Source: an uncultured Prolixibacteraceae bacterium (GTDB lineage: Bacteria; Bacteroidota; Bacteroidia; Bacteroidales; FEN-979). From it: a DNA stretch of 24,668 nt. Below the pieces are notes generated by a model. The model had not been told where the DNA came from and did not search any database. It worked only from the letters and a program-made list of their open reading frames with translations. The translations under genes were made by a program, and so were the position numbers. Positions 6-23,768 of the stretch are shown one piece after another. Position 1 is the first letter of the stretch; every line of letters starts with the position of its first letter. Location of the stretch: contig CAZUYY010000001.1 in assembly GCA_964624935.1 (NCBI GenBank), positions 5,775 through 30,442 on the forward strand. The letters run 5' to 3'.

Positions 6-3000
6 CTATTTATCAACCTTCACCCTTATTCCTTCCGAATGTGCGCCAAATTCAGGAGCATATATACATTGTACTGTTGTAATGCCATTGGAGAATTCCC
101 CGGCTGCATTCACAATAAGCGGGTATTCAAAAATCCATGTCCCTTTTGGAAGGTAATCAAAGAAAAAGTTCGTTGCAACATCCGTCGTGGATTGATAATA
201 ACCCAATCCTCCCTGATAACGATAACCCGATAACTGTTCAGAGGTTGGCGGTTCGAATGCTGATGCCCTCATATCTTTCATGTGAACAAATTCCAGATTC
301 CGGTCAACGGAAATGATGATTCTTACAATGATCCTATCCCCTACTCTGATATCCTCACTTGATCCATTTTGTCCCTTCGTAATTTGTAATTCGTAATTCG
401 TAATTGGTTCAAGAACTTTCCCTTTTCCTGTCACTCTTTCAATGAACAGTTTCTTCTCAATTTTTAGCGGAGTCTGGTGTGGTGTGATCTTGTCAAGATC
501 TTCAAAATATTGCCAGTAAAGAGCTCCCCAGGCAATGCCTTCATTGGATTTGGAGACCGTGACATTTCCCATCTCAGGGTTGATTTCCTTTCCATCACGA
601 AATACCTGGAAATAACCAGTGCCTGCTTCTACTTTGGTATCTGTTAATTTCAGGGGATCAATCCTTTCTTTTCCCAAATCGATTTTTATTTCCGGCTGCA
701 CCGAAAGAAGATTAGTTCCCCTGAGGAGCAATGCATAACAGGCTTCAGCCGTAGCACGTCCTGTTTTCCAGTCCTGAGTCTGTTTTTGTTTCAGTAACCA
801 AACTTTCATATCATCGACCGGCTTCGGATCGGCAGTAATTTCTTCATAGGCCTCGATCATAAGTGCTTGTGTTTCTATTGGAGCCTGGTACCATTTATAG
901 CCATTTTGCGAAGCCCAATACATTCCCATTTCCGGAGAATGAAGAGCTTTTTCGGAAAGCGATTTAAGGATAGCGTCAGGGACGGTCTTGTTTCCCAGAC
1001 GGTTTAGCGCTAAAGCAATCATTCCCTGGAAATAAGGATCATTCTGTAGCCAGTATTTTTCTGCCTGCTCCAGGAAATAATGAAAAGCTGTATTCACTTC
1101 AACCTTGTTTTTTATAACCGGAATATCATTGAAATAATAGCTTCGGGCATAGAGGTACTGGATTTGGGTTGCACCGAGATGATTTTCATCTATCTTTTCC
1201 GGATACAATCTTATGATGTCGTTATAATCTTTTACGAGTTCTCCATCAAGATATTCTACTGCTTTGTTCAATATAATCCAGGTATCCTTGTCATCCCTGA
1301 TATTTTTAATTCCAAGATGATCGAGATGCCCGAGACCAGTTACGATATTCTGTGTGATATAGCGGCTTTCCTGCATTCCATCGAACCATGGCCATCCGCC
1401 GGAAGGCGCCTGCATTTTTTGCAGCTTTTTCAGATTCTGATCAAGCTTTGCTTCCATGTTATTCCGGTCGAAAAACAAAGCCAGCCGGTGTTTCCGTTGC
1501 GTTTCGTCCTGTGCTTCCATTACCCAGGGTGTCTCCTGCAAAAGTGTTGATTTCAATTGTTCATTTTTAATCAGGTTTGACACCAATGCATCAGTTGAAA
1601 TGGTTTTCCAGCTTTCGAAGACTTGTTTAATCGCCGGGTTGGAATTCGCAAGAAAGAACGCAATGCTGTTGGTATAATAAGAATTAAAAATATTATCTGC
1701 GTTGGGATATTGCGGATCATCCATGGTTGGCAGTGCTTGTACGGCATACCATACCGGATTCGATGCAAATTCAAGGGTCAGCTTATAATTCTTCAGGGTC
1801 TTGTCCGCAGAAGAATTCAGCAATTTATCAAATTTGAAATCAAAAGTGCCTTTATCATTCACAGGAAGTGGCAGGGATTCTGTCACCAGCATGCGGTTTG
1901 TCAGGACAGGGAAGGCTTTTTCTTCCCCATCACTGAAATCACCCGCCCTGGCGGTGATTCGATACTGGAGAAGTGAAAGGGATGGATCGTTTGGAATGGC
2001 CAGCTTCCACTGGAATGCTGAACTTTGCCCGGTAAGCAGGGTAAAGGCCTGGTTTTGATTGTCTGAAATCACAAGGTTGACGGTTTTTTGCGAAAGTGCA
2101 TCCGATAGTTCCAGCACCACTTCTCCGTTCAGAGCACGCTCACTAAGGTTAACCACTTTTGCGCTGAAGATAAGTGTATCGCCCTGGCGGACAAACCGCG
2201 GTGCATTCGGAAATACCATCAGGTCTTTATGGGTAATAACCTCTTTTTCAGTCAGTCCATAATCCAGTTGTTTAGTATAGGCGAACCCGAGAATTTTCCA
2301 TTTGGTAAGGGATTCAGGCACGGTGAATTTCATATCAAGATTTCCTGCCGAATCGGTGACCAGTGAAGAAAAGAAGAATGCTGTTTCCCGGAAATCCTTT
2401 CTTATCTGCACTGTTTCTTGAATTTCGACTTTAGGCGTTTGTTTTTTCTCTTCCGTCTGGCTCACCAGGTGTTCAGTCATACCATCTTTTGGTTGAGCGG
2501 ATGTGGTTGAAATTACTTCTGGTTGTGGTTGTCCTGAAGATAAAGTACCGGCTAACATCGGAGTGTACAATTTCCCACCGCCAAGCCTCCGGTCACTTCC
2601 ACCGAAACCCAATCCGAACCAATTTAATTTTTCATAGGAATGTGAGATATATTCCCCACTGGTAAAATGCAACGGATAATATACCCCTGACGTGGTGTTG
2701 AATCCCCCGCTGACTTCCCAGGGAAGCGAAGAATAATATTCCTTTAAAACCGAAAACGCCCATTTATTGGACTTAAACGCATCTAAGGATGCATCATACA
2801 TGGCTGTAAGATATTCAGCAATTACGCCTTTTTTTGCGGCATCGCTGATCCTGATCCTCCATTCTTCATTCTGTCCGGGATTGATTTTATCACGAAACGT
2901 GTCAAATTTGATGTCCAGCTTCTTGTTGTTAAAAGGAACACGTACCAACACGTTATGCTGGAAAGACCTGTTTAACCTGATAAATATAAAATTCACTGAA

Positions 3001-6000
3001 AAATTACCGCGGAATTGTTCCTGTATCGGAATCTCCACCAATTCCTGGTTATTGCTGAGCTTTATCCATTGTCTTGAATAAAGCGTATCATGAACCCTGA
3101 TCTCATATAAAACATTGACATCCTCTGCTTTTGAGCCGATCAGGAATTCAGCCTTCTCCCCGGGTTCTCCACTTGTTTTCACCGGAACAAACCAATCCAT
3201 TTCCTGCACAGGTATTCGTGCAGAGGAAGGATCATAGATCACAAAAGGGATCCTTTGTTCAACATCTTCACCAAAAGGATCCTTTGCTTTCAGGGTTAGC
3301 AGATAGTTTCCTTCCGGAAGTATCTTTCCATTCCCCATCCTCCAATCTCCATATACCGACTTTGCTGCAATCTGTGAAAACCGAAATATGGAATCTGTCG
3401 CTGTATTGATATCTTTTTTCAGGATTTCCTGGTCAACCGGCCAGTTGATCACGATATTTTCATCCGCATAAAGGTCGTTTGGGAAATCGGAATGAAATTC
3501 CTTTTCTGTCATGCCCGTCATATCGGGTTTATCCCATAAACGCTTTCTGTAAAACCGGTCTGGTTGTTTCAGTTTTTGAATGTTCAGGGTGACGGCAGTG
3601 GGTGTTTTCCTGCCATTTAAATTAGTAGCCGTCAGGTGAAATACTGTATCTCTTGCAGGATCAAGATTCCCGGGAATATCCATACCCAACAAAAGAGAAA
3701 CATATCCCACGGAGACATTTTCGTTTGAAGATTGTGTTTCTCCATTGATATCGGTCACATCAGCATAAATCATATAATCGAAAACCGGTTTTGTTGATTT
3801 TTCGAACGAAAGATCAGGAACTGCTTTGAACTTTAACTTAAAGCTGCCATCAGCACTTGTTTTCGACATGCCCTGCATGATTTCAGTTTCTGTAACCGGG
3901 TGTACAGGCATCCACCAGCCACTTTCCCAAAAAGGAAATCGTGCCGAACGCACTACCCTGTATTTTACGTCTGCGCCATTAATGTTAATTCCTGCATATG
4001 CTATAGCTTTCCCTGTTACTGTCACACTGTCGTTCAGATGATAATTTCCTTCAATGGGATCGAAAGTAACTTCAAAGGTTGGACGTTTATATTCTTCAAC
4101 GGAAAATGTCACTGAACCTGAACCATCCGAAAGTTTCATGGTTCCTGGCAGCAATCCTTGCGGGATCTCAAAAGACCCGTTAAAGGAACCAAATTCACTG
4201 GTGGTGAAAGTTTGTTCAGCAATCTTTTGATCATTTACATCGGTAAAGTTCACAGTGATCTTTATTCCTGGTTTAATGTTATGGATATCAGCAGTTTCTT
4301 CGATAAGAACACCTTTGAAATAAACAGTTTGTCCAGGCCGGTAAATTCCCCGGTCTGTGAAAAAGAATGTTTTCAGGGTCGTTTTTTCATTGGGTTCGTT
4401 TACAGGATAACGGTAATAATATCCTGTCACCAGGAGGTCGTCTTTTAACTTTAAACGAAGGAACACGTTATTGTTGGATCCATTCTGCAGGACAGCAGGC
4501 AGTAAAAAATGACCATTTTCATCGGTTACATACTCCCCTGACTTCTGATTCTCAGACTTTCTTGTAGTGTAGTCGAAAACATTACGAAAGGCTTCTGCCG
4601 TAAGGCCATTCAGCGGAAGTCCGGTTTCCCTGTCGAGGATATAGAAATCTTCTTCACTTTTTTCATTCCGCTGGCTGATGTAACTGATCCGGGTGGAAAA
4701 GAAAGGCACCCAGGCAATAACCTGGCCGGTATCTTTAAAATCCGGGAAAGAAGATGCGATTAGAATATAATATCCGACCGGTAACCCGGGTATGCGTATC
4801 TCCATCCGGTGTGACTGGTAATCTCCATCGTTGGGAAGGTTTAGCGACCAATCCTTTTGAAATTCAAGGCTGGAGTAGTAAGATATCTGTTCTTCCCTCG
4901 GGCGGTTTAGGGTTCTTTCCTTGTCGATATCCGGGTCTGATTTTGCAAGCCTGAAATAGAGGGTTTTCATATTCCTGAATTCGATCACTCCGAGAGATGG
5001 TTTTTGGGGCACGACAGCATGTTCAGTTTCAATTTGCAATGCAGGTTTTTCAATATCGGCAGCCAGTAGCTTGCAATTGGCAGCCCCTACGCTCTCAGGA
5101 AATCGTTTTTTTGCCTGGTTGCAATAATCAATTGCTTCCTTTAATTCCCATTTATGTCTTTGTGATTCGGCAGGATGGTACTGCGATCCCTGTTCCTTCA
5201 GATAAGCAGCAATTGCATAGGTAACATCGGTGGAATATGGCGATGAAAGACTGGTTTGTTCCAGCTTTTTCATGGCATTCAGATACAAAGTGTCTTTCCC
5301 ATCCATCATGGATTTATCCTTCAGGAATTGAAAACGATGGATTTCTTCATCGATCAGTGCATGAGGATCTTTATCTTGGCAGTGAAAGCCCGCAAGATCC
5401 TGGTAGATCTTCAACGAAAAGGCAAGAAATGAGGAGGAATCTGAAGGTAATTCCAGCTTCAAAGCAGCGAATTCACGTGCCTGTGAGAAATACGACGGTT
5501 GATTGAGTGAAAAGGGGATAGCAACTGCCTTATCCGGGCTTTCATTTCCGGAGAAATATTTTAGTACACGCCAGCATAAAAAGTCGTACAGTGTAGGCCG
5601 GTAGCTGGTCTTGTTTTTCTCCATCATTTTTACAGGTTGCTTTCCCTGTGATTCCGGCTTTTCAAGTATATCTTCAAAGGAGCCGATCGGCAAAGATTTT
5701 AACAGAGACGGATCCTGAATTGAGAGCAGCCAGGTTTTTACTGTTTTTCGGGCCAGGGTTTTCAGATCCCAGGTCTGAATGCTATCGGATGTGGTATTCA
5801 TGACTTCTGTTCTGTTTCCAAACCGGTAGCGGTTATTCAGGTAATACGACTGATACATCTCAGCCAGAATGGAATTCAGGATTTGACGGGCCGGTTCATG
5901 TGATCCTTTGATCTCAGCATTGACTTCCCTGATGGATAATGCTACGGCATCTTCCATAAAATCTGCTTTCAGTTTCAACCTATAAATGAAAGCCTTGATA

Positions 6001-6260
6001 TACTGAGGATCATTCTTCTCTTTCTTTGCCTGGTCATAGATTGTATTCACGATCTCCAGGGCCGATTTAGGAAGACCCAGGTTTGACAGGGAATCGACTT
6101 TTTTCCACCGAAATGAATAATAATTGGAGAGCTGGTGAGGTGGCGAAATATTTAATTGGTGAACTGGTGAACTGGTGAACTGGCGAGTAAGATCAAGGGC
6201 AAAGATGGAAGAACATCTTAGTAAAAAAATAAACCCAAAGATCACAGGTTTTGTTTTCAT
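6..6260 (-). CDS. Bacterial alpha-2-macroglobulin family protein (MG2 domains, bait region, A2M C-terminal region), secreted; no CxEQ thioester motif
   Basis: About 2084 aa. A2M-family segments include FFFTDRGIYRPGQTVYFKG (MG2), FSVEEYKRPTFEV, IRKDFRETAFF, FTVPESLTKWK, LMVFPNAPRFVRQGD and YIYAPEF-like CIYAPEFGAHS. The ORF track starts at 6284; ATG 6260 (MKTKPVIFGFIFLL...SSIFA) gives a cleaner signal peptide, so the start is inferred. Confidence 0.93.
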   Translation of the reverse strand: MKTKPVIFGFIFLLRCSSIFALDLTRQFTSSPVHQLNISPPHQLSNYYSFRWKKVDSLSNLGLPKSALEIVNTIYDQAKKEKNDPQYIKAFIYRLKLKADFMEDAVALSIREVNAEIKGSHEPARQILNSILAEMYQSYYLNNRYRFGNRTEVMNTTSDSIQTWDLKTLARKTVKTWLLSIQDPSLLKSLPIGSFEDILEKPESQGKQPVKMMEKNKTSYRPTLYDFLCWRVLKYFSGNESPDKAVAIPFSLNQPSYFSQAREFAALKLELPSDSSSFLAFSLKIYQDLAGFHCQDKDPHALIDEEIHRFQFLKDKSMMDGKDTLYLNAMKKLEQTSLSSPYSTDVTYAIAAYLKEQGSQYHPAESQRHKWELKEAIDYCNQAKKRFPESVGAANCKLLAADIEKPALQIETEHAVVPQKPSLGVIEFRNMKTLYFRLAKSDPDIDKERTLNRPREEQISYYSSLEFQKDWSLNLPNDGDYQSHRMEIRIPGLPVGYYILIASSFPDFKDTGQVIAWVPFFSTRISYISQRNEKSEEDFYILDRETGLPLNGLTAEAFRNVFDYTTRKSENQKSGEYVTDENGHFLLPAVLQNGSNNNVFLRLKLKDDLLVTGYYYRYPVNEPNEKTTLKTFFFTDRGIYRPGQTVYFKGVLIEETADIHNIKPGIKITVNFTDVNDQKIAEQTFTTSEFGSFNGSFEIPQGLLPGTMKLSDGSGSVTFSVEEYKRPTFEVTFDPIEGNYHLNDSVTVTGKAIAYAGININGADVKYRVVRSARFPFWESGWWMPVHPVTETEIMQGMSKTSADGSFKLKFKAVPDLSFEKSTKPVFDYMIYADVTDINGETQSSNENVSVGYVSLLLGMDIPGNLDPARDTVFHLTATNLNGRKTPTAVTLNIQKLKQPDRFYRKRLWDKPDMTGMTEKEFHSDFPNDLYADENIVINWPVDQEILKKDINTATDSIFRFSQIAAKSVYGDWRMGNGKILPEGNYLLTLKAKDPFGEDVEQRIPFVIYDPSSARIPVQEMDWFVPVKTSGEPGEKAEFLIGSKAEDVNVLYEIRVHDTLYSRQWIKLSNNQELVEIPIQEQFRGNFSVNFIFIRLNRSFQHNVLVRVPFNNKKLDIKFDTFRDKINPGQNEEWRIRISDAAKKGVIAEYLTAMYDASLDAFKSNKWAFSVLKEYYSSLPWEVSGGFNTTSGVYYPLHFTSGEYISHSYEKLNWFGLGFGGSDRRLGGGKLYTPMLAGTLSSGQPQPEVISTTSAQPKDGMTEHLVSQTEEKKQTPKVEIQETVQIRKDFRETAFFFSSLVTDSAGNLDMKFTVPESLTKWKILGFAYTKQLDYGLTEKEVITHKDLMVFPNAPRFVRQGDTLIFSAKVVNLSERALNGEVVLELSDALSQKTVNLVISDNQNQAFTLLTGQSSAFQWKLAIPNDPSLSLLQYRITARAGDFSDGEEKAFPVLTNRMLVTESLPLPVNDKGTFDFKFDKLLNSSADKTLKNYKLTLEFASNPVWYAVQALPTMDDPQYPNADNIFNSYYTNSIAFFLANSNPAIKQVFESWKTISTDALVSNLIKNEQLKSTLLQETPWVMEAQDETQRKHRLALFFDRNNMEAKLDQNLKKLQKMQAPSGGWPWFDGMQESRYITQNIVTGLGHLDHLGIKNIRDDKDTWIILNKAVEYLDGELVKDYNDIIRLYPEKIDENHLGATQIQYLYARSYYFNDIPVIKNKVEVNTAFHYFLEQAEKYWLQNDPYFQGMIALALNRLGNKTVPDAILKSLSEKALHSPEMGMYWASQNGYKWYQAPIETQALMIEAYEEITADPKPVDDMKVWLLKQKQTQDWKTGRATAEACYALLLRGTNLLSVQPEIKIDLGKERIDPLKLTDTKVEAGTGYFQVFRDGKEINPEMGNVTVSKSNEGIAWGALYWQYFEDLDKITPHQTPLKIEKKLFIERVTGKGKVLEPITNYELQITKGQNGSSEDIRVGDRIIVRIIISVDRNLEFVHMKDMRASAFEPPTSEQLSGYRYQGGLGYYQSTTDVATNFFFDYLPKGTWIFEYPLIVNAAGEFSNGITTVQCIYAPEFGAHSEGIRVKVDK
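376..403 (+). repeat. Heptamer tandem array (TTCGTAA)x4, inside the A2M CDS
   Basis: TTCGTAA TTTGTAA TTCGTAA TTCGTAA; translated on the - strand as ITNYELQIT. Confidence 0.85.
3323..3357 (+). repeat. Degenerate heptamer array (period 7, units ending in CC), inside the A2M CDS
   Basis: TCTTTCC ATTCCCC ATCCTCC AATCTCC ATATACC; - strand GGTATAT GGAGATT GGAGGAT GGGGAAT GGAAAGA, translated as VYGDWRMGNGKI. Confidence 0.55.
6125..6190 (+). repeat. Octamer array family A (TGGYGANN), inside the A2M CDS
   Basis: TGGAGAGC TGGTGAGG TGGCGAAA TATTTAAT TGGTGAAC TGGTGAAC TGGTGAAC TGGCGAGT AA; the 8-nt register holds over 64 nt. Confidence 0.9.
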
Positions 6261-6320
6261 AAGATGAAGCATTTTAATATGCAATAATAATTGAAACGGT
6301 AGAATTTTGCAAAGATTGCG

Positions 6321-7136
6321 TTATTTCGAAGAACCAACCAGCGAAGTAACCGGGTTGGCGAGTCCTTTGTACTCGATCAGTTCAAGTTTCACTGATCCTA
6401 TAGTGACGTCTGATTTTGCGAGGACCGGGATGCGGTTCTGATCGTCAGTAATCCAGACATCCATTGGATAGGGTTGGCTGAATACATAACCCGTCGCTAC
6501 CATTGGTTTAAATTTCAAACAGCGGAACGTTCCAAGGTCGGTTTGTACTTCTTCACGTCCGGCAAATTCAATCAGGGAGACATACATTGAATCGTCGAGA
6601 ACGAAGTCCACAGGAAAACGCTCTCCAATTTTGAGATTGGAGAAATCAAGCGTCCGGCAATAGAAAAATGCAGAAAGAATATCATAGGTGCCAACATTCA
6701 TTTTTTTGTTAGCCTTACGGCTTGAATAATTTCCTGAATATTGATTGAAACGTATTTCATCATTCACTGAGTAACTGCCCTCATGTGTATTTCTGATAAA
6801 CAACCATGGGACGAGATATTCTTCATCCATGTATGATTCAAAACAGTCGTTGACCTTATAAAAAAGGTTAAATGCACCTTTCGATTTTCCTTCACCGATT
6901 ATGTGAAAAGTACTTCGTCCATCGAATATTTTATCCTCAAATTTAACTTCCAGCGAAGCCAGGCCGGCTGTGACTTTCCCGGTCACAAAAGAATCATAAT
7001 ATGCTTTAAATCTCAACCTTTCTCCCCGGATGAATGCAGTATTCCGGACAGGAGTCAATGATTGGGCAGGAAGAATGAAAAATGAAGAATGAAAAATGAA
7101 AAATACAATTAACAGGAAACGGCAAACAGGCTTCAT
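6321..7136 (-). CDS. DUF3108-like periplasmic/secreted protein
   Basis: 271 aa with a signal peptide. The segments FIRGERLRFKAYY, VQTDLGTFRCLKFKP and DVWITDDQNRIPVLAKSDVTIGSVKLEL match my recollection of Bacteroidota DUF3108 proteins. The ATG is 1 nt after the leuS stop. Confidence 0.75.
   Translation of the reverse strand: MKPVCRFLLIVFFIFHSSFFILPAQSLTPVRNTAFIRGERLRFKAYYDSFVTGKVTAGLASLEVKFEDKIFDGRSTFHIIGEGKSKGAFNLFYKVNDCFESYMDEEYLVPWLFIRNTHEGSYSVNDEIRFNQYSGNYSSRKANKKMNVGTYDILSAFFYCRTLDFSNLKIGERFPVDFVLDDSMYVSLIEFAGREEVQTDLGTFRCLKFKPMVATGYVFSQPYPMDVWITDDQNRIPVLAKSDVTIGSVKLELIEYKGLANPVTSLVGSSK
7074..7101 (+). repeat. Heptamer tandem array (AATGAAR)x4 in the DUF3108-like signal peptide
   Basis: AATGAAA AATGAAG AATGAAA AATGAAA; translated as FFIFHSSFFIL. 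Confidence 0.85.
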
Positions 7137-7137
7137 T

Positions 7138-9951
7138 TCAAATCACAATGTTGATTATTTTTTTCGGCACCACGATTATATTTCTGGGAGGTTTGCCCTG
7201 AAGCCATTTCTCAGTTTCAGGGGCTTTCAGCACAGCTTGTTCGATCGCAGATACCGTAAGGTCAAGCGAAAGTTCCAGTTGGAACCGCATTTTACCATTA
7301 AACGAAACCGGGTAATGAAAAGTATTCTCAATAATATATTCTTCAATAAATTCGGGAAAAGGAGCATAGGTTACAGACCCGGAATGTCCTGAATGTTCCC
7401 AAAGTTCCTCAGCTAAATGCGGAGCATATGGCGCGATCAGGATCACAAGGGGCTCAAGGATTGCCTTTTTATTACATTTTAACTCAGAAAGTTCGTTCAC
7501 ACAGATCATGAAGTTTGAAACGGCTGTATTGAATGAAAACCATTCGATGTCTTCCTGGGTCTTCTTTATGGTCTTATGGAGGATCTTAAGCTCATCTTTT
7601 GTCGGTTCTTCACCGGTCACAGAAAATTCATTTTCCCGGTCATGGTACAACCTCCAGAATTTGCGTATAAAACGGAATACCCCTTCAATGCCGTTGGTGT
7701 CCCATGGCTTCGATTGCTCCAGCGGACCGAGGAACATCTCATAAAGCCTGAGTGTGTCAGCTCCGTAATGATCGATCAGGTCATCGGGATTCACCACATT
7801 ATGAAGTGATTTCGACATTTTTTCTATTTCATACCCGCAGATGTATTTCCCATCTTCGAGAATAAATTCAGCATCTGCAAGATCGGGACGCCAGTTTTTA
7901 AACGCAGCAAGGTCGAGCACATCATTCTCCACGATGTTTATATCGACATGCATTTCCGTTGTTTCGTAATCCTTTCTCAGATTATAAGAGACGAAAGTAT
8001 TTGAGTTTTTAACCCGGTAAACAATATTCGAGCGTCCCTGGATCATTCCCTGGTTGATGAGTTTCTTATAAGGTTCATCTTTACAAACCAGTCCGATATC
8101 GTAAAGAAACTTATTCCAGAACCTTGAATAGACCAAGTGTCCTGTGGCATGTTCGGCACCGCCAAGGTAAAGGTCAACATCCTGCCAGTATTGGTTGGCT
8201 TCTTTTGAAAAATATTCTTTATCGTTGAGGGGATCCATATAGCGAAGATAGTACCCGCTCGACCCTGCAAAGCCCGGCATGGTGCTTGTTTCGTAAGGAT
8301 AACCTTCTTTCGTCTTCCAGTTTTTGGCACGGGCCAGTGGTGGCTCGCCGGTTTCTGTCGGAAGATATTTATCCACTTCCGGCAACAGCAGTGGCAGTTC
8401 GGATTCATCCAGAACATAGGCAGTGCCATCCTTGTAATAAACCGGGAAAGGTTCGCCCCAATAGCGCTGACGGCTGAAGATGGCATCACGGAGACGGAAA
8501 TTCACAGTCCCTTTGCCTATCTTTAATTCTTCTACCTTGCGGATGACTGCCGAAACGGCTTCTTTCACATGCATTCCATTGATGAATTCCGAATTCACCA
8601 GTATCCCGTCCTTGGCATCATAGGAGCTTTCTGAAATATCCCCTCCGGAAACTACTTCAATAATGGGCAGATTGAAATGCTTTGCGAAATCATAATCCCT
8701 GCTGTCGTGAGCCGGAACTGCCATGATAGCGCCGGTTCCGTAACCGGCAAGCACATAATCGGCAACCCAGATTGGGATCTTTTTACCGTTCAGTGGATTA
8801 AGGCAGTAAGCGCCGGTAAATTCACCGGTGACTTTTTTAACTTCTGCCATCCGTTCACGTTCTGAACGGTTCTTTGCCCAGTGAAGGTAATCCTTTACAG
8901 CAGGTAGTTGCACCTGAGTCGTAATGGCTTCAATGAGTTCATGTTCGGGTGCAATGACCATAAAGGTCGCCCCGAAAATTGTATCGGGCCGTGTTGTAAA
9001 AATATCCAGTTTGTAATTTGTATTTTCAATGGGAAATTCAATTTCAGCCCCTTCTGAACGACCGATCCAGTTCCTTTGAATCTCTTTCAAAGATTCAGTG
9101 AATTCTATTTTATCGAGTCCTTCCAGCAGACGTTGTGCATAGGCGGTAATACGTAAAAACCACTGGCGCATGAGTTTTCGTTCAACAGGATGGCCTCCGC
9201 GAAGTGAGACCCCATTGGAAACCTCATCATTGGCAAGAACAGTACCCAGTTCCGGGCACCAATTCACCATGGCATCGCTCTGGTAAGCGAGTCTGTAATT
9301 CATCAGAAGTTCCCGCTGCTCTTTTACAGGAAAGGATTTCCATTGAGCGGCAGTAAAAATGCCGTTCCAGTTAACGCCGAGAAAAGGATATTTATTCCGG
9401 AAGCCTTTGAACCAGTCGGTCGTCATAGCTGCATGAACTGTTGCATTTCCTGAAGATTCAAAAACGCTGATTAGGCTATCAATTGATTCTGCTCTTTGCG
9501 TTTCTAAATTGTACCAGTGATTGAAGAGCTGAATAAAAGTCCATTGCGTCCATTTATAATATCCCGGATCACAGGTCTTGACTTCACGATCCCAGTCATA
9601 AGAAAACCCGATCTTATCCATCTGTTCACGGTATCGTGCAATATTCTTTTCCGTAGTGATGGCGGGATGGGTGCCGGTTTGAATAGCATATTGCTCGGCC
9701 GGCAGTCCGAAAGCATCATATCCCATGGGATGCAAAACATTGAATCCCTTCAGCCTTTTGTACCGTGAATAAATATCAGATGCAATATATCCCAAAGGAT
9801 GCCCCACATGCAGACCTGCTCCGGAAGGATAAGGAAACATGTCGAGGACATAGAATTTCGGTTTTGAAGAGTTGTTATCTGCTCTGAATGTTTTATTCTT
9901 CATCCAGTATTCCTGCCATTTTTTCTCGATCTCTGAAAAGTTATACTCCAT
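7138..9951 (-). CDS. leuS: Leucine--tRNA ligase
   Basis: Class I aaRS motifs: [19 protein letters not shown] (HIGH), EKMSKS (KMSKS), editing-domain [13 protein letters not shown] and [15 protein letters not shown]. Start placed at ATG 9951 (MEYNF); the ORF-track extension to 9996 is a translated repeat array. Confidence 0.98.
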
Positions 9952-9958
9952 GATTAGG

Positions 9959-9993
9959 TGGTGAAGTGGTGTAGTGGTGAACTGGCGAGTTAA
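9959..9993 (+). repeat. Octamer array family A in the leuS 5' leader
   Basis: TGGTGAAG TGGTGTAG TGGTGAAC TGGCGAGT TAA. Confidence 0.9.
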
Positions 9994-15732: not shown

Positions 15733-15733
15733 C

Positions 15734-15773
15734 AAAATGGTAAAGTAGTAAAATGGCAATATGGTAAAATAAT
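15734..15773 (+). repeat. Octamer array family B (AAAATRGY)x5
   Basis: AAAATGGT AAAGTAGT AAAATGGC AATATGGT AAAATAAT. Confidence 0.85.
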
Positions 15774-15800
15774 TATCAATTATCCATTGTCAACTATCAA
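15773..15800 (+). repeat. Heptamer array (TTATCAA)x4
   Basis: TTATCAA TTATCCA TTGTCAA CTATCAA. Confidence 0.8.
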
Positions 15801-15802
15801 TT

Positions 15803-15837
15803 CATCCAGTATCCAGCATCTAGCATCAAGTATCGAT
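15803..15837 (+). repeat. Heptamer array (YATCCAG)x5
   Basis: CATCCAG TATCCAG CATCTAG CATCAAG TATCGAT. Confidence 0.85.
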
Positions 15838-15838
15838 T

Positions 15839-18671: not shown

Positions 18672-18676
18672 AGACG

Positions 18677-18708
18677 TGGTGAACTGGTGATGTGGTGATG
18701 TGGTGAGT
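18677..18708 (+). repeat. Octamer array family A between convergent genes
   Basis: TGGTGAAC TGGTGATG TGGTGATG TGGTGAGT TT. Confidence 0.9.
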
Positions 18709-18716
18709 TTTTTCAA

Positions 18717-22274: not shown

Positions 22275-22340
22275 CCTACCCCCAATCCCTCTTTATTCAT
22301 AAGACCCCTCCCCCATCCCCTCCCCCAAAAGAGAGGGGAG
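22275..22340. repeat. C/G-run palindromic element, about 1.5 copies
   Basis: CCTACCCCCAATCCCTCTTT followed by ACCCCTCCCCCATCCCCTCCCCCAAAAGAGAGGGGAG; stem CTCCCC (22320-22325) / GGGGAG (22335-22340). Confidence 0.7.
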
Positions 22341-22412
22341 TTTTGAAAACAATTGTTTAATCGGCTCTGATGCAAAAAGGTAATATGGAGTAAGAATAAA
22401 AATTTAATAATT

Positions 22413-22477: not shown

Positions 22478-23038
22478 ATGAATCTAACGCATGACAAGGC
22501 CCTCGAGATCCTGCATCAATATGTAAAGAATGAAAAAATGATCTATCACTGCCTTGCCTCGGAAGCCGTGATGCGATTACTGGCACAACGTCTTGGTGAA
22601 GATGAGGAAAAATGGGGTTTAGCCGGACTACTTCACGATCTCGATGTGGAAACCACCAATGCCGATCCCCTTGTTCATGGCACCCAGACAGAGCTTTTAC
22701 TGAAAGAATTTGAGATAGATCCTGATATACTCGATGCGATCAGGATGCACAATGAGGTTTCAGCAGGAAAAGAACGCAGTACGAAATTCCAGCATGCCCT
22801 GGCAGCCGGTGAAACTATCACGGGGCTGATCTTTGCCACCACCTATGTCTATCCCGACAAAAAAATTGCCAGCGTAAAATCCAAATCCGTAGTTAAGCGG
22901 ATGAAGGAAAAAATGTTTGCTGCTTCGGTGAAACGCGAAAACATCCTCGAATGTGAAAAGATTGGCATCCCGATCGAGGAATTTGCAGCGCTTTCAATAC
23001 AAGCATTGGTACCTATTGCTGAGAGCATAGGACTTTGA
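22478..23038 (+). CDS. HD/HDIG-domain metal-dependent phosphohydrolase
   Basis: Motifs YHCLASEAVMR, WGLAGLLHDLD, H.TQT, AIRMHN and VKRMKEKMFAASVKRENI. ATG 22478 is preferred over TTG 22427. Confidence 0.88.
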   Translation: MNLTHDKALEILHQYVKNEKMIYHCLASEAVMRLLAQRLGEDEEKWGLAGLLHDLDVETTNADPLVHGTQTELLLKEFEIDPDILDAIRMHNEVSAGKERSTKFQHALAAGETITGLIFATTYVYPDKKIASVKSKSVVKRMKEKMFAASVKRENILECEKIGIPIEEFAALSIQALVPIAESIGL

Positions 23039-23042
23039 TAAC

Positions 23043-23077
23043 TGGTGACCTCGTGAATTGGCGAAGTGGCGAGTTAA
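23043..23077 (+). repeat. Octamer array family A
   Basis: TGGTGACC TCGTGAAT TGGCGAAG TGGCGAGT TAA. Confidence 0.88.
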
Positions 23078-23115
23078 AAAATGGCAATATAGCAAGATTG
23101 CAAAATAGTAAAATT
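23078..23115 (+). repeat. Octamer array family B
   Basis: AAAATGGC AATATAGC AAGATTGC AAAATAGT AAAATT. Confidence 0.8.
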
Positions 23116-23116
23116 C

Positions 23117-23150
23117 CTTTGTGATACTTTGTGTGTACTTTCCGGTTAAA
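23117..23150 (+). repeat. CTTTGTG-type 10-11-nt repeat
   Basis: CTTTGTGATA CTTTGTGTGTA CTTTCCGGTTAAA. Confidence 0.55.
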
Positions 23151-23171
23151 TACAGAAAAAATACAAAACAC

Positions 23172-23768
23172 TCAGATCAACGCGATGGCGTAAGACATGG
23201 GGATGATAAAATTCGTTCTTCCCTTATACTCTTTAATCCTTTCAATTGAGGTGGAGCCCTGGGGTTTTACTTTTTGATAGAGTTCTTCATAGTCATGAAA
23301 GAACTGGACAGTATCAAATTTTTGAAATTGTTTCAGTTGAAATTGTTTGAGTGTTTCCCAGCTTTTTATAATTTTTTCTTCTTCGTTACCAATAAATGCC
23401 CATTCTGACCCTGGCAAGTGATCTACAACAATTATATCCGGAGCCATTGTCAGCGCATGTTTTAATGCAATTTCAGGATCTTCCATCTCATGCAGGCAAA
23501 ATTCAAACATGACGAGGTCACCCTGTAAATGACAAAGAGTAAAATCAGAATGAATAAGTGTGAATTTATTCTCCAGACCTGATTTTACAAGGTTATCCTT
23601 CAGCTTATCCAGGGCGTCTTTATCATAGTCAATTGCCAGGACACTTTTTAATTTGTGTCCATAATCAATAATTTGTCCTCCACCTGCACAGACTGTAATA
23701 ATTGTCCGGTTGGTAAATTCATAAAATTCATACAGGTGATTCAGTATTTTGCCGATATCTGTGGCCAT
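23172..23768 (-). CDS. Class I SAM-dependent methyltransferase-like protein
   Basis: Motif I-like IITVCAGGGQ, followed by LAIDYD (motif II acidic residue), IHSDF and FEFCLHEM. ATG 23768 is preferred because the track's TTG start at 23804 overlaps a -7 box. Confidence 0.7.
   Translation of the reverse strand: MATDIGKILNHLYEFYEFTNRTIITVCAGGGQIIDYGHKLKSVLAIDYDKDALDKLKDNLVKSGLENKFTLIHSDFTLCHLQGDLVMFEFCLHEMEDPEIALKHALTMAPDIIVVDHLPGSEWAFIGNEEEKIIKSWETLKQFQLKQFQKFDTVQFFHDYEELYQKVKPQGSTSIERIKEYKGRTNFIIPMSYAIALI

Follow-up and report, generated by a model that had tools for sequence, protein, structure and literature searches.

A stack of short tandem repeat families headed by a polar four-unit octamer element between convergent genes of an uncultured peat Bacteroidales lineage

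Tandem families of short, 7-8-nt units have been known in intergenic DNA for decades, the cyanobacterial STRR since about 1990, while their origin and role are unexplained. REP/BIME elements of Proteobacteria are approximately 35-40 nt long, occur in many copies just past the stops in convergent and co-directional spacers, are lineage-specific and frequently grouped in clusters; whether they are present follows the presence of a trans-acting gene. Each REP is an imperfectly palindromic sequence, the GTAG-type head of which is recognised by RAYT transposases (IS200/IS605-type TnpA). Phase-variable SSRs usually have units of 1-5 nt (7 nt in a few); they occupy promoters or the 5' part of coding regions, and their switching takes place within populations.

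The closest described systems are tandem heptamers. Rehm et al. 2015 described GGGAATC in Xanthomonas and GGGGA(C/T)T in Nostoc, both of unknown function (PMC4692102). The G-rich strand of these repeats lies at most approximately 50 bp past stops, where it is the coding strand, or upstream of ORFs, where it is the non-coding strand; it is always nearer to its 5' neighbour, four units are preferred, and four-unit GGGAATC was shown to form a G-quadruplex (PMC4692102). Related species carry the repeats at the same intergenic positions, in differing lengths and sequences (PMC4692102). Long simple sequence repeats with units of 5-11 nt (Mrazek, Guo & Shah 2007), in the accounts given by PMC4679880 and PMC4692102, form a statistical, motif-agnostic class with a non-coding bias and a sporadic phylogeny, for which polymerase slippage was proposed. 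MacGregor 2015 treated cyanobacterial STRR and TAACTGA as tandem 7-nt families with many intergenic sites near starts and stops, and found some Bacteroidetes spacers to hold composite heptamer stacks, which close relatives lack at the corresponding position (PMC4679880). The TAACTGA sets are mostly forward and directly upstream of starts, and neither a four-unit rule nor a terminal unit was reported for them (PMC4679880).

Repeats of this kind are present in an uncultured peat Bacteroidales lineage, in a stretch of 24,668 nucleotides from a Prolixibacteraceae bacterium (GCA_964624935.1, contig CAZUYY010000001.1, positions 5,775 to 30,442), referred to below as the window. A 133-bp spacer (23039-23171), nearly all of it short repeat blocks, separates two convergent genes, an HD-domain hydrolase gene on the + strand (22478..23038; Pfam HD, E=1e-10) and a SAM-methyltransferase-like gene on the - strand (23172..23768; weak matches to Pfam methyltransferase domains). 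The reading that we favour, with moderate confidence, is that short-period repeat modules have piled up in this spacer in a lineage-specific way, by insertion or expansion between stops that lie 2 nt apart in a related clade, and that its stop-proximal block A is a discrete dispersed element with a fixed gene-boundary polarity. Block A is a little-described octamer counterpart of the unexplained heptamers of cyanobacteria and Xanthomonas.

The repeat stack is anchored by the HD stop TGA (23036-38), directly followed by an in-frame TAA. The lead-in TAAC (23039..23042, + strand, as for all blocks here) forms the end of a degenerate, A/T-rich unit found ahead of most A arrays. Block A (23043..23074), one copy of a dispersed polar 4x8 element, comprises four 8-nt TGGYGAnn units, read directly as TGGTGACC TCGTGAAT TGGCGAAG TGGCGAGT from 5' to 3', the last of which, TGGCGAGT, is the terminal unit of the family and is followed by TA. 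A 7-nt A-run linker, TAAAAAA (23075..23081), shifts block B one base out of phase with A; its counterparts are TATTAAA in lineage L286 and TAATGAGG in L005. Block B (23082..23113) is made of four 8-nt TRGYAAnA units, TGGCAATA TAGCAAGA TTGCAAAA TAGTAAAA (5' to 3', read directly), of an A/T-rich sister family. Block C (23114..23150) contains weak 10-11-nt repeats of the CTTTGTG type; after B come TTC and then CTTTGTGATA CTTTGTGTGTA CTTTCCGG (23114-45). An A-rich tail with two AAATACA copies (23151..23171, read directly) extends to the stop of the convergent gene. The first-pass annotation, made from the letters alone, had seen a stack of a 4x8 family A, 8-nt B units and CTTTGTG repeats after the HD stop, and this stack was confirmed, with B comprising four units and C being weak. 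An identical 186-aa HD protein was called on four independent contigs, and a 198-aa methyltransferase-like protein on L001/L002. Since the same spacer was recovered in four independent assemblies (ENA, JGI and two Logan), it is not an assembly artefact.

Blocks A and B were significant against dinucleotide shuffles, and C was not significant by itself. The lag-8 autocorrelation gave z=4.7 for A, z=4.2 for B (23075-23113) and z=6.6 for both together, and the observed lag-8 maximum was matched in 0/500 shuffles. When the whole window was scanned at lag 8, the signal exceeded the 95% null maximum at five places only, 23051-23119 among them, and all five were gene boundaries. Head-to-tail 5-11-nt units beyond chance length, as in long SSR and STRR, are thus represented by A+B, and within approximately 25 kb of the source genome the repeats are found at many, mostly non-coding loci. 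As far as the two accounts of long simple sequence repeats go, A and B resemble that class in their short head-to-tail units, whereas one dominant motif, defined ends, polarity and a fixed copy number set them apart. For block C, which has two exact CTTTGTG copies and a partial one, lag 10/11 gave z ~2 (P ~0.1), and TRF made no call on it. The second copy reads CTGTGTG in two of the four independent assemblies. Block C is probably related to the TYTGYG decamers that trail A arrays elsewhere; C-like blocks follow A in L005, L286 and L132 and at a metagenome loose end, TACTTTGTGACTCTGTGACTCTGTGA.

Element A has a consistent layout, namely a lead-in (T)TAAC, usually exactly four TGGYGAnn units, and a terminal TGGYGAGT followed by TA. 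Unit numbers of 34 arrays were distributed as 2:2, 3:5, 4:19, 5:1, 6:3, 7:3 and 8:1, with the mode at four (19/34); approximately 10-25 kb were sampled per genome and several orthologous arrays enter the count from more than one lineage, which makes these and the following array statistics overstate independence. Upstream of the arrays, position -3 was A in 30/32 and (T)TAAC was the commonest 5-mer. The final unit ended in GT in 25 of the 32 arrays, compared with 12 of 111 inner units (Fisher 6e-13). Beyond it, position +3 was T in 21/32 and position +4 was A in 18/32 (GTTA in 10/32). Positions 7-8 and position 4 of the units vary freely. Two A copies at different loci of L286 differ at only 2 of approximately 38 positions.

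The window contains five A arrays, compared with nine per 20 kb in L005, and roughly one third of its gene ends, no more, bear an array. Four units and a T6 run fill the convergent spacer after an M28 peptidase stop (18672..18716, +). Another four-unit array, ending in TGGCGAGTTAAC (9959..9990, +), has its C-rich strand as the sense strand and lies 6 nt upstream of the ATG of a LeuRS-like gene (- strand). At 6125..6188 (+), 3+4 A units, again with the C-rich strand as sense, are in frame just past the predicted signal peptide of an alpha-2-macroglobulin-like ORF. Some A arrays other than that of the HD spacer end in a T6-T9 run, yet without a hairpin. A literature search with the motif strings returned primer sequences only.

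Family B occupies a second composite spacer (15733..15838, +), where four B units come straight after the stop of a T9SS-protein gene and are followed by AATTATC-type and CATCCAG-type heptamers up to the tadA start. As had been noted from the sequence, B is thus found in both composite spacers with different partners (read directly in the window), and the 15-mer that it has in common with 15750-15764 is real, with 14/15 bases alike and 0 matches expected by chance. A and B are sister families that fit one register, with T1, G3, Y4 and A6 in common; position 5 tells them apart, being G in every A unit (14/14) and A in every B unit (8/8). B as nothing but decayed A was ruled out, since the G5-to-A change is found in all eight B units and the T9SS B block is kept in three lineages.

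The G-rich strand of A points outward from the gene end closest to it. Of 22 arrays that were informative with called or curated genes, 17 lay nearer to the gene located 5' of the G-rich strand (17 vs 5, p=0.017), and the median distance to a gene was 8 nt on this side and 99 nt on the other. In low-GC metagenome loci, among the matches listed, a sense stop was located 5' in 20 arrays, an antisense stop 3' in 7 and both in 5, giving 15 exclusive cases (5' sense) vs 2 (3' antisense). Just past stops the sense strand is thus the G-rich one, and just ahead of starts it is the C-rich one. The C-rich strand contains no G and no start codons and folds with an MFE of 0; the G-rich strand supplies TGA, TAA and TAG in all three frames after the stop. 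The preference for four units, the nearer 5' neighbour and the occupation of the same gene ends in relatives, with differences in length, are features in common with the heptamers of Rehm et al., whereas A differs from them in its 8-nt unit, the lack of a GGG tract and of a predicted canonical G-quadruplex, its Bacteroidota host, the conserved terminal unit and lead-in, and stacking with sister families in a fixed order. Compared with STRR and TAACTGA, the motif and period of A are different, while tandem families near starts and stops and composite stacks are alike.

At least 120 TGGYGA x4 stretches were found in a metagenome scan, with a GC of 0.27-0.69 among the matches listed. In viral contigs TGGYGA x4 was not commoner than permuted cores (23 vs 29 and 21), and because of this lack of excess a universal role, such as 16S 3'-tail pairing or a Chi-like function, was dropped. 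A replication-oriented, Chi-like role is also disfavoured by the mixed array orientations within 10 kb of L005. A Rho/rut insulator as the general cause of the polarity is weakened because Nostoc obeys the same rule and cyanobacteria are described in PMC12642595 as being without Rho. Pairing of C-rich and G-rich arrays between 5' and 3' UTRs is not general, as by inspection both flank the same gene in only approximately 3 of 14 array-bearing genes.

Among the relatives, an A array follows the M28 stop in six of six clade I/II lineages, including L281 with its inverted M28-thioesterase pair, and the HD stop in five of the six, with orthologs in L281, L284, L005 and L286. Identity at 4-fold sites between the window and clade II is approximately 0.40, which is saturated, so A has been kept at the same gene ends across saturated synonymous divergence. 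The number of A units past the HD stop is two in L284, three in L005 and four in the window, L281 and L286. The T9SS-tadA composite spacer is orthologous in L278 and L281, with 21-nt (3x7) and 16-nt (2x8) indels; such whole-unit changes in copy number between relatives are STRR-like. By hand count of the alignment, the identity of this spacer is approximately 90% in L278 (4-fold sites 0.69-0.83) and approximately 83% in L281 (4-fold sites 0.55-0.65).

Clade III, the sister of clade I with 100% bootstrap, is different. No A arrays were found in three 20.5-kb loci of this clade, where the spacers are 2 and 5 nt long and the stops of the HD and methyltransferase-like genes lie 2 nt apart. Since the same two stops are 2 nt apart in a sister clade without arrays, the 133-bp spacer is net added, lineage-specific DNA. 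The absence of the A family from the three sampled clade III loci also indicates that it is dispensable for these genes. Presence in clades I and II with absence in III needs either loss of the whole family or two gains at the same gene ends. Comparison of the filled sites with the empty clade III sites revealed no target-site duplication or insertion signature of the kind expected from a MITE or transposon. The tetramer TTAA occurred within 6-7 nt of the ends in 8 and 6 of 32 arrays (background 0.016-0.021).

The first-pass annotation had regarded the locus as a hotspot that also borders a compositional shift, and both proposals held in part. The 3' end of the HD gene is rearrangement-prone, being followed by an IS630-like element in L278 and by other neighbours in L281, L005 and L286, and whole-unit differences between relatives show that the locus varies at the species scale; four near-identical strains, however, differed by only three substitutions and a 1-nt deletion and showed no copy-number change. 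No unit-number variants were found in the four assemblies and the contigs of three metagenomes, contigs being a form of data that drops rare variants. The compositional shift is real (GC 0.46 to 0.35-0.37), but foreign DNA was ruled out as its source, since the methyltransferase-like gene is simply a lower-GC ortholog, 69-71% identical in amino acids from end to end to the L288/L285 genes that abut HD in clade III.

Several known repeat classes could be set aside. The units of the stack are 8 nt long and contiguous, whereas CRISPR arrays have repeats of 23-50 nt with unique spacers of similar length. A contingency SSR was rejected by location, since the spacer is flanked on both sides by the 3' end of a convergent gene and does not lie in a promoter, a 5' UTR or a reading frame; the whole-unit change is like that of contingency loci, whereas the same copy number was found in four assemblies. 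Element A resembles REP/BIME in size, number of copies and post-stop sites but consists of four direct octamers and lacks a conserved hairpin; the one predicted at 23039-23085 does not persist in L004, L281 and L284, and a REP/BIME-like structure was rejected on this basis. In our view the stack is neither a contingency switch nor a structured RNA nor a canonical terminator.

The first-pass annotation had proposed that modular blocks are combined independently at hotspots, so that any family may be shuffled beside any other. That the blocks are genuine modules was borne out, A and B each having about four 8-nt units with an A/T-rich lead-in of their own. Free shuffling is in line with the different partners of B in the two window spacers, with the presence of an A array in L281 and of 11-mer arrays in L285/L288 in one and the same spacer, and with the downstream neighbour of the HD 3' end, which differs in most other lineages sampled. 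The block after A also varies among lineages: the window has B+C, L284 has GCGGACRA units, L005 has a T-run and TCTGCG decamers, and L281 shows decay. Independent combination nevertheless failed, because the blocks keep to an order. In every composite tabulated by eye A was the block next to the stop, and the order A4-linker-B4-decamer recurs co-linearly after a different gene in clade II (56/82 identical, 68%, ungapped). The A/B junction itself is repeated at other loci, other contigs of the same peat metagenomes aligning over it at approximately 85% or more, and in low-GC loci, among the matches listed, variant cores with G-to-A were more frequent 3' of A than 5' (39 vs 15, p=0.03). The combinatorial proposal is therefore very improbable. 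Given the co-linear order in clade II and the junction-spanning contigs, the stack behaves as an ordered, partly co-inherited unit. A stronger competitor holds that A is a functional cis-element, with four DNA or RNA binding sites for a lineage-specific factor, acting as an insulator, roadblock terminator or mRNA-end protector, factor and sites being gained and lost together. The sharp four-unit mode, the conserved terminal unit and lead-in, the retention of the motif at the same gene ends through saturated divergence and the L281 M28-thioesterase inversion, and the presence or absence of the family by whole clades would all be expected of it, and by hand count the composite T9SS-tadA spacer of L278 and L281 appears to have changed less than 4-fold sites, although repeat alignments inflate apparent identity. 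However, spacers of 2-5 nt suffice for clade III at these genes, only about one third of the window gene ends bear arrays, positions 7-8 and 4 vary freely, and in the viral-contig control the motif was no commoner than permuted cores. We regard a functional cis-element as a serious but rather unlikely explanation.

Two structural explanations fared worse. That the four G-containing units fold as a DNA or RNA G-quadruplex, itself the selected feature, is suggested by a four-unit mode and G-strand polarity like those of the proven G4-forming heptamers, and the GGYG of each unit could serve as a bulged G-tract. Yet the units have GG runs only, with 6-nt loops, and the second unit here, TCGTGAAT, has no GG; B blocks also have four units and contain almost no G. 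With G4 energies, ViennaRNA predicted that (GGGAAUC)4 forms a G-quadruplex, whereas neither the octamer consensus nor the window arrays gave one. A canonical G-quadruplex was rejected in this way, the positive control having worked; selection for a G-quadruplex fold is highly improbable. Least credible, and already largely refuted, is a structured RNA or intrinsic terminator of the HD gene. The + strand of 23039-23085 can form an interrupted 13-bp hairpin of -15.4 kcal/mol (z=-4.15), a stability reached by 0 of 200 shuffles, but an A-run (A6) and not a U-run comes after it. In strain L004 the hairpin drops to -9.6 kcal/mol (z=-0.9), the L281 and L284 orthologs do not have it, and other A arrays are unstructured (z +0.1 to +1.1). 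A scan of 22800-23400 for intrinsic terminators and sigma-70 promoters yielded none in the spacer, and Rfam (gathering thresholds) and tRNA scans of the whole window gave no matches.

In the reading that we favour, a lineage-specific pile-up headed by a dispersed polar element, B is an A/T-rich sister family in the register of A, and C is a weak decamer family often trailing A. The unit-sized gains and losses between relatives are as expected from slipped-strand mispairing. Because near-identical copies with shared termini are found at different loci, we infer that A copies spread by some copy mechanism. The copies may then be retained or weeded out according to how their orientation affects transcripts. 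Being G-free, start-free and predicted to be unstructured, the C-rich strand would suit Shine-Dalgarno-independent leaders, and the G-rich strand could supply backstop stops in three frames past the stop codon. Both the leader and the backstop arguments would be weak selective forces. Slippage alone does not account for a mode at exactly four or for the conserved terminal unit, and a motif-specific factor may be needed. In a more speculative extension, which we consider unlikely, A4/B4 would be marks written and maintained at gene boundaries by a lineage-specific trans-acting factor, as a non-palindromic, direct-repeat analogue of REP/RAYT or as a four-site binding platform. Such a system would be gained or lost whole (present in clades I and II but not in the intervening III), and the A4-linker-B4 stack of approximately 80 nt would itself be propagated. 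If this were true, complete sister-clade genomes could reveal the long-sought factor behind STRR/LSSR-type families.

Since an octamer that is not G4-like keeps the four-unit and gene-end polarity rules, the G-quadruplex explanation of those rules may be incomplete. Very close clades with and without the whole family, in which the same stops lie 133 nt or 2 nt apart, offer a clean comparative handle on any trans-acting determinant. There are practical consequences as well. The stacks break short-read assemblies, Logan contigs ending at the array, and the stop-free C-rich strand inflates ORF calls.

The 133-bp spacer (23039-23171) lies between two convergent stop codons, that of an HD-domain gene (22478..23038, + strand) and that of a methyltransferase-like gene (23172..23768, - strand). 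Directly after the HD stop codon TGA the sequence reads TAAC, followed by block A of TGGYGAnn octamers (23043-23074; TGGTGACC TCGTGAAT TGGCGAAG TGGCGAGT), the linker TAAAAAA (23075-23081), block B of TRGYAAnA octamers (23082-23113; TGGCAATA TAGCAAGA TTGCAAAA TAGTAAAA), block C of CTTTGTG-type repeats 3' of block B (TTC CTTTGTGATA CTTTGTGTGTA CTTTCCGG) and an A-rich tail with two copies of AAATACA. Compared with dinucleotide shuffles, the 8-nt periodicity gave z=4.7 for A, 4.2 for B and 6.6 for A+B. This A/B signal exceeded the whole-window threshold for lag 8, which only five peaks in 24.7 kb passed, each at a gene boundary. The resemblance of B to 15750-15764 reported in the first-pass annotation was recovered at 14 of 15 positions, above chance, and the CTTTGTG block that it described was present but weak (P ~0.1, no TRF call), its second copy being CTGTGTG in two assemblies. 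The same spacer occurred in four independent assemblies, which excludes an artefact. The source organism is an uncultured Bacteroidales bacterium from peat and wetland metagenomes; a permafrost MAG is the nearest representative in GTDB, and related genomes carry the labels Prolixibacteraceae or Draconibacterium.

Relatives were retrieved via the HD protein and placed in a neighbor-joining tree of two proteins (HD and an M28 peptidase) rooted with five outgroups. Clade I comprised the window and the related loci L278 and L281. Clade III (L285, L287 and L288) was sister to clade I with 100% bootstrap, and clade II (L284, L005 and L286) fell outside both.

Block A is a discrete element of ~40 nt, as indicated by its polarity, its copy-number mode, its defined ends and the similarity of its copies. 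Besides block A, the window contains TGGYGAnn arrays at 6125-6188, 9959-9990 and 18677-18708; in L005, the nearest GTDB relative, nine were counted over 20 kb. Clades I and II were surveyed over 10-25 kb per genome, with gene calls partly made in this analysis and array counts inflated by orthologous arrays. Of the 22 arrays informative for polarity (called or curated genes), 17 had the G-rich strand reading outward from the closer gene end (p=0.017), with medians of 8 nt (5' side) and 99 nt (3' side) to the gene. The sense strand was G-rich past stop codons and C-rich ahead of start codons. An ORF-based count in low-GC metagenome loci gave the same polarity (15 vs 2). There were 2, 5, 19, 1, 3, 3 and 1 arrays of two, three, four, five, six, seven and eight units, respectively. 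The last unit ended in GT in 25 of 32 arrays, compared with 12 of 111 inner units (Fisher 6e-13). It was usually followed by T at +3 (21/32) and often by A at +4 (18/32), the full GTTA occurring in 10 of 32, and on the 5' side the arrays were preceded by a degenerate A/T-rich unit, most commonly ending in TTAAC, with A at -3 in 30 of 32. Given these defined ends, the A ending pointed out earlier, TGGCGAGTTAA, proved to be a signature of the family. Two arrays of L286 (at 10569 and 15402) differed at 2 of ~38 positions. A free-running microsatellite was ruled out by the polarity, copy number, defined ends and similar copies.

The spacer had been called a hotspot; unit number was constant in near-identical strains and variable only at deeper divergence. 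Over 756 nt, L004 differed from the window by three substitutions and one 1-nt deletion, all in the A/B arrays (23041-23088), a clustering suggestive of a higher local mutation rate or of ectopic conversion among the array copies. After the HD stop, L281 (90%) had A4, L286 had A4 followed by T6, L005 had A3, a T-run and TCTGCG decamers, and L284 read TGATAAC TGGCGAAC TGGCGAGT, that is A2 with first and last bases as in the window, followed by GCGGACRA units. The array was absent from L278 (96% aa), where an IS630-like element right past TGATA takes the place of the repeat stack and the methyltransferase-like neighbour. This small element (L278 10563-11322) carries a 160-aa DDE_3 ORF and 35-nt terminal inverted repeats of 80% complementarity. 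Past the M28 stop, an A array was found in all six clade I and II lineages, including L281 with its inverted M28-thioesterase pair. Since four-fold sites are saturated between the window and clade II (identity ~0.40), the presence of A at the same gene ends indicates that the motif is maintained there by some process, whether slippage-driven renewal, copying or selection.

No A arrays were found in the three 20.5-kb loci of clade III. Per kb, clade III had 0-0.10 arrays of any kind, clade I 0.29-0.36 and clade II 0.53-1.22. To account for this distribution, the A family must either have been lost in clade III or have been gained twice at the same gene ends. Clade III is strikingly compact compared with its sister clade I (e.g. 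L288 10561-10564 and 6190-6196), with only 2 nt from stop to stop between the HD and methyltransferase-like genes and 5 nt between M28 and its neighbour. The methyltransferase-like protein aligned end to end with clade III at 69-71%. Judged by the 2-nt gap and this alignment, the stop codons are conserved and the 133 bp that separates them in the window is a net gain of repeat DNA. The compositional shift noted earlier was seen as a GC drop after 23000 and is due to the lower-GC, vertically inherited methyltransferase-like gene; a foreign insertion was rejected because the ortholog aligns end to end. Bounded by the start of the acetyltransferase gene and the stop of the Fer4 gene, one spacer held an A octamer array in L281 (13982-14014) and two unrelated 11-mer arrays in L285 (13983-14058) and L288 (13979-14049). 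Some spacers appear to attract repeats regardless of the active family.

A and B have a common period and register (T1, G3, Y4, A6). All 14 A units had G at position 5, where all 8 B units had A, and position 8 was A in nearly all B units and in no A-family unit. Both B blocks of the window had four units. That B is merely decayed A was rejected, as the B block past the T9SS-protein stop could be aligned across the window, L278 and L281. The first-pass annotation proposed that blocks combine independently, but the order was not free: A was stop-proximal in every composite tabulated by eye (window spacers at 23043 and 18677; L005 and L286 after M28 and after HD; L284; L281; metagenome loci L163, L132, L166, L123 and L188). 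B occupies the stop-proximal slot in the other composite spacer (15733 and orthologs), which is without A. Past M28, L286 and L005 had A4, GTTA with an A/T linker, four or five B-like units of TAGCGAAA/TGGTAAGT type and TCTGCGnAAA decamers. The HD-downstream stack of the window was co-linear with this spacer and identical to L286 at 56 of 82 positions, ungapped, a figure to be read with the forgiving nature of repeat alignments, despite the different gene and the four-fold-site identity of only ~0.39 between the genomes. Contigs of other loci from the same peat metagenomes spanned the A/B junction at ~85% or more, and one ran on into a clean array of C type, TACTTTGTGACTCTGTGACTCTGTGA. Cores with a G-to-A change were, in low-GC loci, more frequent 3' of A than 5' (39 vs 15, p=0.03); control cores with G-to-T had no 3' bias (13 vs 14).

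Composite "assemblages of heptamer repeats" missing in close relatives were described in Bacteroidetes spacers (MacGregor, PMC4679880), and an upstream regulatory effect was reported for Nostoc heptamers (bioRxiv 10.1101/2022.06.06.494920). The A family differs from the known heptamer families in its 8-nt unit, lack of G-tracts, other phylum, conserved terminal unit and ordered stacking with a sister family. A literature search on the A/B motif strings found no paper mentioning them, and in a permuted-motif control on viral contigs the octamer was not globally special.

A hairpin was predicted at 23039-23085 (z=-4.15). Conserved RNA structure was rejected, because this hairpin was not retained in L004, L281 or L284 and arrays elsewhere were unstructured. 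No canonical G4 was predicted for the arrays, with a working positive control, and the spacer yielded no terminator, promoter or Rfam match. The arrays are dispensable, lack a conserved RNA structure, vary by unit-sized indels and have polarity, a four-unit mode and defined ends. Modules may spread via some copy process, array length would change through slipped-strand mispairing, and orientation might be filtered by transcript effects. Leaders in Bacteroidota are unstructured and independent of Shine-Dalgarno pairing. The C-rich strand (no G, no ATG/GTG/TTG, no stop, MFE 0) would suit such leaders; the G-rich strand would introduce start codons and an SD-like GGTGA there, and past a stop would offer a stop codon in all frames. 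These forces on orientation are weak and leave the four-unit mode unaccounted for; a motif-specific factor behind the arrays therefore stays a serious rival, albeit a rather unlikely one.

Repeats were also present in and beside genes. The 6125-6188 region comprises two in-frame A-type arrays (3+4 units, C-rich strand sense) directly past the predicted signal peptide of a 2088-aa alpha-2-macroglobulin-like ORF and encodes ...TRQFTSSPVHQLNISPPHQLS..., indicating that the C-rich strand is tolerated after a signal peptide. Within the same alpha-2-macroglobulin-like gene (ORF 6..6272, -), a heptamer array at 356-429 (sense-strand AATTACG x4.3), one of the whole-window lag-7 peaks, lies in frame just upstream of the bMG10 domain. 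At 7052-7137, ATTTTTC x5 (sense) forms the hydrophobic core of the DUF3108-gene signal peptide (MKPVCRFLLIVFFIFHSSFFILPAQS), indicating that repeats invade coding margins too. In the methyltransferase-like gene, a 15-nt in-frame tandem duplication (23322-23352; TTGAAATTGTTTCAG x2.1) encodes KQFQLKQFQ, and the L285 and L288 orthologs had unrelated residues at the matching position. Upstream of HD, the divergent region contains a C-rich direct repeat (22305-22345; CCCCTCCCCCAT x2) that pairs with GAGAGGGGAG and is followed by TTTT, which makes a terminator-like hairpin on the + strand; L278 has a similar sequence (~9830-9870). High-GC soil contigs (GC 0.61-0.69; L089, L093, L096, L099, L105, L107, L109, L112, L113 and L115) had (TTGGTGAR)n, an A/T-rich loop and (YTCACCAA)n, forming long hairpins of inverted octamer arrays in the gap from a stop codon to the following start, and these may be a separate lineage's variant of the same theme.
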